64,000 nucleotides of DNA, from contig JAEOTZ010000072.1 of NCBI GenBank assembly GCA_016839585.1, positions 32,001 through 96,000 on the forward strand, written 5' to 3'. Under the pieces are notes generated by a model. That model saw nothing but the letters and a program-made list of their open reading frames with translations. It was not told the DNA's origin and did not search any database. The first letter of the stretch is position 1. Every line of letters begins with the position of its first letter. Source of the stretch: Promethearchaeota archaeon. Lineage in GTDB: Archaea > Asgardarchaeota > Lokiarchaeia > Sigyniarchaeales > SOKP01. A program made the position numbers and the translations under genes. Below are positions 2,400 through 5,671 of the stretch, piece after piece.

Positions 2400-2589
2400 C
2401 TTTTTTTAAAATTTTTAACCAAATCTCTTACTATAAGTTTCAATATCACCTACATATTATCTTTTTTTATTAAGGCAATGGAAAATTCCCAAATTTTTAT
2501 ATAATTGATAAACATATTATTTAGATAAGCATCGTTAAAGGTATAGAACTATATCTATATTTAAAATTGATTCCGACAAAAAATAAAAT

Positions 2590-4566
2590 ATGTTAGAAAA
2601 ACAATTAAAAACCTTAGGACAAAAAATTAGAATAGATATTTTAAAGAAACTAAAAAATATTAAAGAACCTATTTCATTTTCACGACTTCAAAAAGAAGTT
2701 ATTAATTGTAATAATACATCTGTAAACTTCTCATTTCATTTAAATGCCTTAAAAGACTGTAAATTAATAGAATCTTCTGAAGACGGATATTATATTACAG
2801 TTTTAGGTAAGCAGATATTAAATAGTGTATTATCTATTGAACAGATCTTAGTGGAAAAAAATAGGGTAAAAATGATTAGAACATCTAAATATTCGAAAGA
2901 AATATTTGATATAAATAAAATTGAGGAATATCTCATAAACGAAGGCGGAATGGAATCTTTTATAGCTAAACAAATTGCTCATGAAGTTGAAGAGCGCCTT
3001 TCGAAGACTAATATTGAATATCTAACTGCTCCTTTAATGCGTGAATATATTAATGCCATTTTATTAGAAAATGGATTTGAAGAAGTAAGACATAAATTAA
3101 CTCGTTTAGGAACACCTCCATTTGAAGTATTTAAATTATTTAACTCTGAAGGCAGCAGTAGTAATCCTGATAAGTTCATAAAGGAGTTAGGATCTGATGT
3201 TTCTGAGCAATTTTTACTCTTGAACTTATTACCAAAAAATTTAGCTGATTTATATTTAACAGGAGAAATAGCTCTACTGCACTTAAATTATTGGAGTTTG
3301 AGACCTTTAAGCTTATATTTAAATACAAACTCAGTACTAGAGGTGATTTTTAAAAGAAATTTGAATTCCTCGAGGAAATTAACCAATTCTAGAGAATTAA
3401 TTAACTTAATTCTACTTTTTATAGATCTTTTACAAAATTTTAAGCCTTATTTCTCTCAAGATTTAGTATTAGGTGAATTCAACAAAAATATTCTTTCTTA
3501 TATGAATTCCCATGAGAAAATGTTATACTTTATTGATATTTTGAAATCCCAAATTCTCAAGTTTAACAATTCTTTTGAAGATCTGAGACATGGTTTAACT
3601 TTTGAGTTTAACTATAATGATTTTAAGGATTCAACTGATTGGGTTTTAAATCAATTCAAAGTTGATAAAGAATTTTTGAATTATAAAATAAGAGGAAAAG
3701 AATTTGATAATAATATTAAACCTTTTATAATATTTGATTATTCAAAATTAAGTACTTCAAATTTAGAAAATATATTTTTAGAAGATATAATACCTATTTT
3801 AAAAAATAATAATATTTGCTTCTATAACAATAATTCCTCAAATTTTCTAAATTCTGCTTTAATTAAAATTAAAAATTCTAATAAGAATCAGATAATTTTA
3901 GATAAAATTTTAATTAATTTACACTCAATATCAGTAAAGGCAAATCGAAATGATGATTTATTCCTAGATTTACTATTTGACAAAATAAGTTGTGTTTTTG
4001 ATTTATTTAAACATAAAGAATCGTTAATAAAAAAGAAATTAAATTCTTTAAATGGTTGGAAACGTTTGATTCATGATTTTTTTGGAAAAATTGAAGACGA
4101 TTTTTATAAGAATACAATCAAATCTGTAAGTTTTTTTGGTTTAAATGAAGCAATTTTAAATCATTGTGGAATAGAGCTTGATAGATTAGGAAATAGTAAA
4201 GAATTTGCTTTAAGGATCTTATCTTTCATGAAAAAATTAATTAGAGAAAAAAATCAAGAAGAGAACAATTATTATATTTTAAGCCAACCTCATAATGATA
4301 CGTATTTAAATAATGCGTGGCATAATGGAAGAACTCTAAGAAGTGATATGGCGTATAAATATTCATCAAGCATTATTAGACACAATTCAAAGTTATCTTT
4401 AGCTAAAAGAGTTAATTTATTTAAAAAATTTGAAAAAGTTATCAACGGAGGAATTATATTTGATGAATATATTGATATCAATGGGACATCGATAAAAGAG
4501 CTTTTATCTAATCTATTCAAATCTGAATTAGAAGCGATTTTTATACAGAAAAGGATTAAAATTTAG
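2590..4566 (+). CDS. ArsR-type wHTH + ATP-cone + degenerate class III ribonucleotide reductase (NrdD-like) barrel; probably catalytically inactive
   Basis: N-terminal RIDILKKL...FSFHLNALKDCKLI (HTH); ATP cone IRTS...FDINKI...LTAPLMRE; NrdD-like TRLGTP, LPKNLAD, FFGLNE, GGIIF; no C-terminal CxxC or RxxGY. Confidence 0.75.
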   Translation: MLEKQLKTLGQKIRIDILKKLKNIKEPISFSRLQKEVINCNNTSVNFSFHLNALKDCKLIESSEDGYYITVLGKQILNSVLSIEQILVEKNRVKMIRTSKYSKEIFDINKIEEYLINEGGMESFIAKQIAHEVEERLSKTNIEYLTAPLMREYINAILLENGFEEVRHKLTRLGTPPFEVFKLFNSEGSSSNPDKFIKELGSDVSEQFLLLNLLPKNLADLYLTGEIALLHLNYWSLRPLSLYLNTNSVLEVIFKRNLNSSRKLTNSRELINLILLFIDLLQNFKPYFSQDLVLGEFNKNILSYMNSHEKMLYFIDILKSQILKFNNSFEDLRHGLTFEFNYNDFKDSTDWVLNQFKVDKEFLNYKIRGKEFDNNIKPFIIFDYSKLSTSNLENIFLEDIIPILKNNNICFYNNNSSNFLNSALIKIKNSNKNQIILDKILINLHSISVKANRNDDLFLDLLFDKISCVFDLFKHKESLIKKKLNSLNGWKRLIHDFFGKIEDDFYKNTIKSVSFFGLNEAILNHCGIELDRLGNSKEFALRILSFMKKLIREKNQEENNYYILSQPHNDTYLNNAWHNGRTLRSDMAYKYSSSIIRHNSKLSLAKRVNLFKKFEKVINGGIIFDEYIDINGTSIKELLSNLFKSELEAIFIQKRIKI

Positions 4567-4589: not shown

Positions 4590-5528
4590 TCAGCTTTTAT
4601 CTGACATCAATTCTGCTAAAAGTGCTTTTCTCATTGGGATTCCGTAAAACGTTTGTTTAAAGTAAAGTGATTTCTCAGAACTGTCTACTTTTGGTGAAAT
4701 TTCGGAAACACGGGGTAAAGGATGTAATAATCTAAATTCATTTTTAGTGTCATCAAGATCCTCTTTTCTAAAAACATATATATCCTTAACCTTTTCATAT
4801 TCTTCCAAATCAATGAATCTTTCTTTTTGAATTCGTGTCATATAAAGAACATCTAACACACTTAGAATCAAACGATATTTAGTAATTTCTTTATATTTTA
4901 CTTGTCGTTGTCTTAAAAAATCTTTATCTCTATTTCTCATTCTAAGCTCCTTAGGGCTTATAAAATAGATATTTACATCAAAGTTAGAGAGTAAAATTGA
5001 AAGTGAGTGAACTGTACGACCATACTTAAGATCACCCATTATACCAATATTAAAGCCATCTAAAGATCCAACCTCTTCAGTTATAGTTAATAGATCTAAT
5101 AATGCTTGAGTAGGATGTTCACCACTTCCTGACCCTGCATTAATTATCGGGACGTTTGCGAATTTTGCTGCCATTCGAGCAGCTCCTTCGAGGTTGTGTC
5201 TCATCACTATACAATCACTATAATTTTCAACCGTTCTTATTGTATCGGCAATGCTTTCTCCTTTTTTGATAGAAGAAACATCTCCAGAATGGAATCCTAT
5301 TACATTACCTCCTAATCTATACATTGCCGATTCAAAACTGAGACGAGTACGGGTTGATGGTTCAAAAAATAATGTTGCTAAGATTTTTCCTTGAAGAATA
5401 TTAGAATTTTTAATTTGAATCATTTCTTTAGCTTTTTTTAAGATATAATCAATATCTTCCCTATCAAATTGCTTAGCACTTATTATTCCTTCACTAAATT
5501 TCTCTTTAAACTTCAATATTCTCATCAA
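4590..5528 (-). CDS. pyrB: Aspartate carbamoyltransferase catalytic subunit
   Basis: FFEPSTRTRLSF, HPTQALLD, GDLKYGRTVHS, YMTRIQKER, HPLPR. Confidence 0.97.
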   Translation of the reverse strand: MMRILKFKEKFSEGIISAKQFDREDIDYILKKAKEMIQIKNSNILQGKILATLFFEPSTRTRLSFESAMYRLGGNVIGFHSGDVSSIKKGESIADTIRTVENYSDCIVMRHNLEGAARMAAKFANVPIINAGSGSGEHPTQALLDLLTITEEVGSLDGFNIGIMGDLKYGRTVHSLSILLSNFDVNIYFISPKELRMRNRDKDFLRQRQVKYKEITKYRLILSVLDVLYMTRIQKERFIDLEEYEKVKDIYVFRKEDLDDTKNEFRLLHPLPRVSEISPKVDSSEKSLYFKQTFYGIPMRKALLAELMSDKS

Positions 5529-5671
5529 TATGGTTTTATTAAAATTATGGTAATAAGATTTAAAACATTTTTTATTAAACAGTAGAAGTTTATAAGAAAG
5601 AAAGAGAACTAATAAAATTTAAAATTCATAAATAACTACCTAAGTTAATTAAATATTAAGGTCAGTGAATA

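Follow-up and report, generated by a model that had tools for sequence, protein, structure and literature searches.

What becomes of an anaerobic ribonucleotide reductase (RNR) that carries a DNA-binding domain at its N-terminus and has no catalytic residues left? The question is raised by a gene at positions 2590-4566 of a 64,000-nucleotide (nt) stretch, hereafter the window, from a Promethearchaeota archaeon (GTDB lineage Asgardarchaeota, Lokiarchaeia, Sigyniarchaeales, SOKP01; assembly GCA_016839585.1, contig JAEOTZ010000072.1, positions 32,001 to 96,000). The supply of deoxynucleoside triphosphates (dNTPs) is tightly controlled in all cells, and bacteria use NrdR to this end. A sequence-only reading of the locus took the gene product for a nucleotide sensor coupled to DNA binding and functionally analogous to NrdR. 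This idea gains support from a 9-mer, CCGACAAAA (the RNR box), that is common to the promoters of the gene itself, of the genuine nrdD and of nrdJ, and from the finding that no NrdR is detected in the genome (3.45 Mb, 99% complete). The protein is probably a non-catalytic descendant of the class III reductase NrdD that acts as a DNA-binding regulator of the RNR genes and of its own gene, analogous to NrdR but differently built. A regulator of a small RNR regulon with autoregulation is the simplest explanation because the promoter of a reductase-derived winged-helix protein carries the very motif that marks reductase promoters.

The gene is an intact open reading frame (ORF) which encodes an ArsR-like winged helix-turn-helix (wHTH), a divergent ATP-cone and an NrdD barrel; the 658-codon frame and the three parts had all been read from the letters, with the wHTH at residues ~1-85, the cone at ~93-170 and collinearity with NrdD beyond, and every part of this description holds. 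Pfam places a DUF7347 wHTH at residues 6-79 (43.8 bits against a cut-off of 27.6); the NCBIfam ArsR/SmtB model NF033788 matches the winged helix with E 6e-5 (22.8 bits, under its own cut-off), and the homologue P0169 passes HTH_5 (34.1 bits against 22). The domain has the S-x-x-x-S-x-H-L-x-x-L recognition-helix pattern of the ArsR/SmtB type, from which DNA binding is predicted; the helix, SVNFSFHLNxLK, is kept in the family, and N46, S48, H50, L51 and L54 are invariant. The ATP-cone match at residues 95-166 (PF03477) scores 17.9 bits, under the cut-off of 25.8, as does the cone of the genome's real NrdD (19.6 bits), and both carry R-T where canonical cones have K-R; the cones of the long-form homologues P0157, P0169 and P0213, described below, clear the cut-off (27.9-33.5 bits). 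The invariant residues of the family cluster in the cone and the 70 residues that follow it, and include R97, T98, S99, Y101, E104 and R151 as well as R167 and R172 at the cone end.

Further downstream, the NRDD profile (PF13597) matches residues 440-638 to its positions 282-486 of 562 with E 2e-16, and the NrdD equivalog TIGR02487 gives 48 bits against a cut-off of 326, compared with 449 bits for the genome's real NrdD. An AlphaFold2 model built from a 58-sequence family alignment (mean predicted local distance difference test score 85) finds only class III RNRs as its top structural matches, with a Foldseek E of 1e-19 to the Prevotella copri NrdD. The 10-stranded alpha/beta barrel of RNRs and glycyl-radical enzymes is present (VIA-align against 8p27, 8p2s and 1h7b: Z 27-28, root-mean-square deviation 3.2-3.6 Å over 435-440 residues). 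Model residues 194-654 superpose on P. copri NrdD 124-675 (Z 28.1, 3.6 Å, 440 residues) and, with the cone included, 94-653 correspond to 3-674 of that enzyme, an alignment that also supports the cone assignment. Sequence searches of the Protein Data Bank reach less far: phmmer with the whole protein or the cone alone returns chance-level matches only, and the family profile reaches NrdD in its C-terminal half only. The N-terminal 250 residues align well with the real NrdD of the same genome. Judged by alignment and modelled fold, the protein descends from the archaeal NrdD lineage.

Can such a protein still be an enzyme? Catalytic positions were scored in an alignment of 63 family members with the genome's real NrdD and an HTH-less paralogue; the real NrdD serves as an anchor, since it aligns with the Thermotoga maritima (4COI) and P. 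copri (8P23) enzymes at both cysteines. At the beta-1 cysteine position (P. copri Cys171; RPxC), RPFC is replaced by RPLS; most of the family members displayed in the alignment have Ser there, one has Ala and none has Cys. The finger loop SQCCRKF of the real NrdD, which holds the thiyl cysteine (P. copri Cys416), is aligned to NSALIKIK; the exact register is uncertain in this divergent region, but family members have no cysteine nearby. The substrate-triphosphate motif HxHD and the NxN flap, two further active-site features of NrdD (PMC11226230), are gone as well: HIHM of the real NrdD corresponds to ALLH, and NAN to a linker, SEGSSSNPDK. A motif check of the protein reveals neither the CxxC..CxxC zinc site nor the RxxGY glycyl-radical loop. 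The core of P. copri NrdD ends at residue 671 and its glycyl-radical domain begins at 676 (PMC11226230); because the last residue of the present protein equals P. copri 675, it ends at the boundary between the two. Both radical cysteines, the triphosphate motif, the active-site flap and the entire zinc/glycyl-radical domain are thus lost. The sequence-only reading had named the two cysteines, the zinc site and the radical loop, and the list is now longer by HxHD and the flap; its remark that no activase gene is adjacent is also borne out, the nearest one (NrdG2) being encoded on another contig.

What survives is the barrel, intact and conserved, including several motifs of the C-terminal half (INL, FFGLNEA, SQPH and NGG). 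Their retention is the one argument for a protein that is still an enzyme, either by non-radical chemistry in the RNR barrel or by activation in trans through a separate glycyl-radical piece. This is very improbable: the cysteines, HxHD and the flap are gone, constraint is weakest in the finger-loop region, and no stand-alone glycyl-radical domain occurs among the NRDD matches of the genome. A separately encoded glycyl-radical domain is not needed to explain the protein.

The loss of catalytic parts is not accompanied by decay. Pairwise comparison with three relatives gives a ratio of nonsynonymous to synonymous substitution rates (dN/dS) of 0.21-0.25 for the whole protein; it falls to about 0.10-0.14 in the wHTH (0.12-0.14), the cone and the first core helices and reaches about 0.3 in the middle region that formerly held the finger loop. 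Purifying selection acts on the gene, most of all on its winged helix, ATP-cone and first barrel helices, and the possibility of pseudogene-like decay in orthologues, which had been named as one of two outcomes that would undo the pseudo-enzyme reading, is not borne out. A decaying pseudogene or an annotation artefact has in its favour only the NCBI name, 'anaerobic ribonucleoside-triphosphate reductase', which is given despite the failed equivalog cut-off; it is refuted by the open 658-residue frame, by more than 500 homologues of constant length (about 660 residues), by a dN/dS of about 0.2 and by conserved synteny and promoter, and we give it practically no weight.

When 201 genomes of the phylum were searched with a profile, the full-length form turned up in all 40 sampled genomes of the window's GTDB family. 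Six other families have forms of about 750-780 residues (E 1e-70 to 1e-100), and in most of the remaining families only the N-terminus of the real NrdD is matched. Metagenome-assembled genomes labelled Jord-, Baldr-, Odin- and Culexarchaeia are the source of the longer forms; NCBI taxon labels of the 660-residue form are inconsistent and are not relied on here. The long forms P0157, P0169 and P0213 have a wHTH and a Pfam-valid ATP-cone, cover the NRDD profile almost from end to end and retain the CxxC..CxxC zinc site, yet both cysteines are already gone and the Gly loop is degenerate. Intermediates of this kind occur in Jord-, Baldr- and Culexarchaeia. The likely order of events, as read from these sequences, is gain of the HTH and loss of the cysteines, followed by loss of the radical domain.

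If the protein regulates, what does it regulate? The RNR box is the principal clue. Among 78 orthologous loci (1.16 Mb), 75 of the 82 copies of the box lie at the start of the present gene, where it follows the start of the TATA element by 79 nt in the window. Within the family, the box also stands upstream of nrdD in 24 of 26-27 loci, mostly 72-73 nt after the TATA start (range 71-88); there it persists in genera whose flanks cannot be aligned, and in one genus two copies stand in tandem at an 11-nt register. Its distance from the TATA box, about 72-80 nt downstream, is the same in the nrdD promoter and in that of the present gene. When the 8-mers of the nrdD upstream regions are ranked without bias, CGACAAAA and CCGACAAA come out on top, ahead of the TATA words, and the same two words lead a joint ranking with the upstream regions of the present gene. 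A variant, CCGAYAAAA, precedes nrdJ in 11 of about 28 loci, mainly in closer genera. The genome as a whole has 18 exact copies of the box, against about 16 expected by chance; 3 of the 18 lie in 5' regions of RNR-type genes, for which our own rough arithmetic (4 genes x 150 nt over 6.9 Mb) gives a chance of about 5e-10. In 20 nrdD loci of Asgard families that lack the wHTH form there is no sense copy and one antisense copy, an imperfect comparison as nrdD there follows a thioredoxin-like gene. In a sister family, the long-form gene and nrdD are both preceded by an inverted pair of the core CCGACA, an arrangement that favours recognition on DNA over recognition on RNA. The box overlaps codons 3-5 of an N-terminal extension in most orthologues and is retained in the clade of the window, although it is non-coding there.

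The box was also considered as a mark of the HTH-less paralogue and rejected, as it is not conserved in the promoters of that gene, which have another conserved block, AATTTAATCAGTTAATAATTTTTTTTT. A fourth intergenic copy (ATATTACCGACAAAAAATAAAG) lies at C16:7035 (-), about 25 nt before a 144-codon ORF (L106:1576-2010, -) without a Pfam family; this ORF could be a further regulon member.

The box is one of four features common to the orthologous upstream regions, the others being block A (ATATCACC..ATATTATC), a B recognition element (BRE)/TATA element and a block across the predicted start, block C (Table 1). The TATCACC and ATATTAT parts of block A are invariant, with fixed spacing, in the 45 of 79 orthologous upstream regions that match all three promoter blocks at set mismatch limits, and by eye block A is present in nearly all those listed. 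In 42 of the 45 loci, block C follows the start of the TATA 16-mer at 26 nt; the transcription start itself is predicted from the TATA spacing. A second factor, or the protein itself, may bind blocks A and C. As a regulon marker block A was discarded: when the genome was scanned with TATCACC..ATATTAT, a single further exact copy and one near copy turned up, both away from any recognisable promoter, and the scan yielded no regulon. A 16-base stretch resembling block A, TATCACCCAGATATTA, occurs at C16:60673-60689 (-) and C88:11836-11852 (-), in neither case beside an obvious promoter. An Rfam search of the upstream region returned nothing credible. In other genomes, unrelated genes are inserted between rpS7 and the present gene; they lie on the opposite strand, and the gene must therefore have a promoter of its own.

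The start of the reading frame differs within the family. Most orthologues begin nine codons further upstream, with GTG/TTG/ATG GAT TCC GAC AAA AAT (2566-2589 in the window). In the genus of the window the upstream start codon has become ATT and is followed by an in-frame TAA, so that translation must begin at the ATG at 2590; the sequence is conserved nonetheless.

Table 1. Features of the locus, in window coordinates.
Feature	Position	Strand	Remarks
Block A (ATATCACCTACATATTATC), candidate second regulatory site	2443..2461	+	45 nt before the TATA element
BRE/TATA element of the gene's promoter (TTCCCAAATTTTTATATAAT)	2486..2505	+	fixed distance kept in orthologous loci
Block C (ACATATTATTTAGATAAGCA) across the expected transcription start	2512..2531	+	ACATATTAT common to blocks A and C
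RNR box CCGACAAAA, candidate operator common to nrdD and nrdJ	2573..2581	+	in 75/78 orthologous loci at this place
In-frame TAA cutting off the ancestral 9-codon N-terminal extension (M-D-S-D-K-N)	2584..2586	+	read from the sequence; orthologous starts compared; genome search reports one TAA within the extended frame
Complete coding sequence, wHTH-ATP-cone-dead-NrdD protein	2590..4566	+	658 residues plus stop, frame open throughout
ArsR-like wHTH (residues 1-90)	2590..2859	+	recognition helix SVNFSFHLNALK
Divergent ATP-cone (residues 93-175)	2866..3114	+	Pfam sub-threshold; structural alignment with the P. copri NrdD cone
NrdD-type alpha/beta barrel core (residues 194-654)	3169..4551	+	stops at the boundary of core and glycyl-radical domain; PF13597 E 2e-16
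Ser241 codon in RPLS, at the beta-1 catalytic cysteine position of NrdD (RPFC)	3310..3312	+	alignment with the genome's NrdD and the family
Finger-loop remnant (residues about 413-433), thiyl-radical position without cysteine	3826..3888	+	alignment with the real NrdD
pyrB (aspartate carbamoyltransferase catalytic chain)	4590..5528	-	convergent, 23 nt from the stop codon; TIGR00670 369 bits against a cut-off of 237

The genome that carries the gene encodes other reductases as well. A profile search finds three NRDD-family genes: the present one, a real nrdD and a truncated paralogue. The real NrdD (710 residues) has RPFC, SQCCRKF, CPSC..CPQC and RITGY and passes the equivalog. A B12-dependent class II enzyme, NrdJ, is also encoded and passes TIGR02505; it is of the RTPR type with an ATP-cone, lies on contig C26 (L105:448-2679, +), and was missed by a whole-genome search with PF02867 and found through the box scan. 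Several frames among its relatives (L127-L136) are 1000-1666 codons long, and their split matches point to inteins. NrdJ, NrdD, the truncated paralogue and the present protein have the only ATP-cones in the genome. In the family of the window nrdD stands alone behind its own promoter; in other Asgard families (L167-L186) it is directly preceded in 19 of 20 loci by DNA that reads as a small CxxC (thioredoxin/NrdH-like) gene, apparently in one operon.

The truncated paralogue is a second dead NrdD (contig C89, L002:1180-2988, +). Like the present protein, its 602 residues comprise an ATP-cone and an NrdD core with RPLS in place of RPFC and no thiyl cysteine, and it stops short of the zinc/Gly domain; it differs in having no winged helix, in being much closer to the real NrdD (PF13597 E 5e-68) and in the absence of a conserved box from its promoters. 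Many genomes of the family have ORFs of about 580-626 codons that match NrdD in part.

Regulation of an active paralogue is a common role of pseudo-enzymes. The present protein could accordingly be a co-regulated member of an RNR regulon in which some other protein or RNA factor recognises CCGACAAAA, the dead reductase being a post-translational partner or modulator of NrdD or NrdJ (a heterodimer via the barrel interface) or a nucleotide buffer, and the winged helix serving for tethering or protein contacts. The existence of a second, HTH-less dead NrdD in the same genomes fits this picture, as do a box that is asymmetric and lies inside the predicted transcribed region and the behaviour of P. 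copri NrdD, which functions as a dimer with only one monomer active at a time (PMC11226230). Against it, two genomes (G008 and G156, 98-99% complete) keep the wHTH gene without any other NRDD-family gene, which speaks against an obligate partnership with NrdD. No domain is more constrained than the winged helix, whose ArsR-type recognition helix is invariant at five positions, and neither NrdR nor another dedicated RNR regulator was found in the genome. Taken together, this alternative is unlikely, though the foremost among the rivals. Genomes of one genus that have no real NrdD carry ORFs of 144-149 codons (G008:C272:13498-13797, G156:C188:13546-13863 and G113:C22:787-1098) whose match to the family profile is confined to the ATP-cone; these ORFs may encode stand-alone cone proteins.

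The neighbourhood could point to a different target. The gene had been described as convergent to pyrB, and this is correct: the TIGR00670 match identifies the neighbour, and the two genes lie tail-to-tail in 79 of 80 orthologous loci, in the order L30e-NusA-S12-S7, a variable insert of 0-3 kb, the present gene, convergent pyrB and L44e. Even in deep lineages pyrB adjoins the long forms in 5 of 9 loci, in two of which the genes are co-directional, pyrB first. A regulator of pyrimidine synthesis, sensing nucleotides and controlling pyrB through convergent transcription and antisense effects or by contact with PyrB, would account for this arrangement. The conserved pyrB promoter and the pyrB-L44e intergenic region, however, contain neither an RNR box nor block A nor any other motif in common with the gene, and none is found elsewhere in the loci. 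Nor has the protein replaced PyrI, the normal nucleotide-sensing partner of PyrB: PyrI (PF01948) is encoded in 37 of 40 genomes of the family and in 10 of 10 of the same genus, and this idea is rejected; in the 99%-complete assembly of the window PyrI is not found, probably because of an assembly gap. Finally, the whole block from L30e-NusA-S12-S7 through the gene and pyrB to L44e is strongly syntenic, so that the pyrB adjacency may be inherited gene order. We consider a role in pyrimidine synthesis quite unlikely. The pyrI gene is not adjacent to pyrB in this family. The divergent pyrB/L44e intergenic region (5529-5671) is almost invariant across the family (TAATTATTTATAAATTTTAAATTTTATTAGTTCTG, AATAATTTAAATCTTATTTACATAATGTTAATAAAA), and promoters are unusually well conserved in this AT-rich clade.

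How would a regulator of the reductase genes derived from NrdD work? The winged helix would bind CCGACAAAA and the barrel would provide dimerisation, while the ATP-cone, possibly together with a remaining specificity site, would read ATP/dATP or the dNTP pool. The nucleotide state would alter DNA affinity or oligomeric state, turning the reductase genes down when dNTPs are plentiful, as with NrdR. Given a box about 45-50 nt inside the predicted transcript, repression by roadblock would be the most likely mode; the direction of regulation and its level, DNA or RNA, are a proposal only.

Several observations sit poorly with this regulator model. The box is a single asymmetric 9-mer, neither a palindrome nor a direct repeat, and dimeric winged-helix proteins usually have sites of one of these two kinds. 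Its position, well past the predicted start, is unusual for the site of an archaeal repressor, and its conservation could be partly coding because of the overlap with codons 3-5 in most orthologues. A search upstream of the long-form gene at six Jord-, Baldr- or Odin-type loci did not find the box, nor was it found before nrdJ in more distant genera. Another factor could bind the box, the gene being merely a co-regulated member. Nucleotide binding is uncertain because the cone is sub-threshold in Pfam and carries R-T for K-R, and binding of DNA and of nucleotides are alike predictions from sequence. The model also leaves the near-universal adjacency of pyrB unexplained.

Among described systems, NrdR is functionally the closest; by descent the protein is an NrdD, but one without any of the catalytic features. 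NrdR is an RNR-specific bacterial repressor made of a Zn-ribbon and an ATP-cone (PMC9110341, PMC12176259), and it autoregulates (PMC9110341). The two share the combination of a DNA-binding module, predicted here, with an ATP-cone, which here is divergent and of uncertain nucleotide binding, as well as predicted targets, the RNR genes and the own gene, that are marked by a common box, and the Asgard protein would play the same role in a genome where NrdR is not found. They differ in the DNA-binding module (an N-terminal zinc ribbon in NrdR, an ArsR-like winged helix without CxxC pairs here), in the 480-residue dead RNR barrel, which NrdR does not have, and in their sites, which are paired 16-bp palindromes overlapping the start for NrdR and an asymmetric, usually single 9-mer about 45-50 nt downstream of the predicted start here. 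Outside the cone there is no sequence relationship, the protein having no match to TIGR00244. The relation to NrdD itself (phage T4, 1H79; T. maritima, 4COI; P. copri, 8P23) is one of clear homology, with the same barrel fold and an N-terminal ATP-cone, but the catalytic cysteines, HxHD, the NxN flap, the zinc site and the glycyl-radical loop are missing and a winged helix has been added. A precedent for an enzyme-derived transcription factor is NrtR, in which a Nudix-like effector domain is joined to a winged helix (PMC2330246). In both cases an enzyme fold fused to a winged helix serves, or would serve, as the ligand-sensing/effector module, and in both the protein is mis-annotated as an enzyme; the enzyme family and the domain order are different, and the NrtR regulon has experimental as well as comparative support, whereas here the support is a comparative motif.

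A literature search (Asgard anaerobic RNR, pseudoenzyme RNR, archaeal NrdR, DUF7347) found no published description of the family; in a Tn7 preprint, nrdD figures solely as an attachment site. New here are the evidence for the CCGACAAAA regulon, the selection analysis, the intermediates, the NrdD-less genomes and the rejection of the PyrI idea. There is a practical side to these findings: hundreds of database entries name the protein 'anaerobic ribonucleoside-triphosphate reductase', an annotation error that could credit genomes, e.g., G008 and G156, with a class III RNR they lack.

In the literature searched, no dedicated RNR regulator was found described for most archaea, including the closest relatives of eukaryotes. 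The present family comes with a concrete candidate DNA target, which makes the question of regulation directly testable, and its conversion from enzyme to regulator is traceable, with intermediates still alive in other lineages. A bolder proposition, which we hold with somewhat less than even confidence, is that the winged-helix dead reductases are the archaeal counterpart of NrdR: an enzyme-derived master regulator that would read the dNTP pool through its inherited allosteric parts and set the expression of all RNR classes, with CCGACAAAA as its operator in Lokiarchaeia-type Asgard archaea and with the Jord-, Baldr-, Odin- and Culexarchaeia intermediates recording the stepwise conversion.

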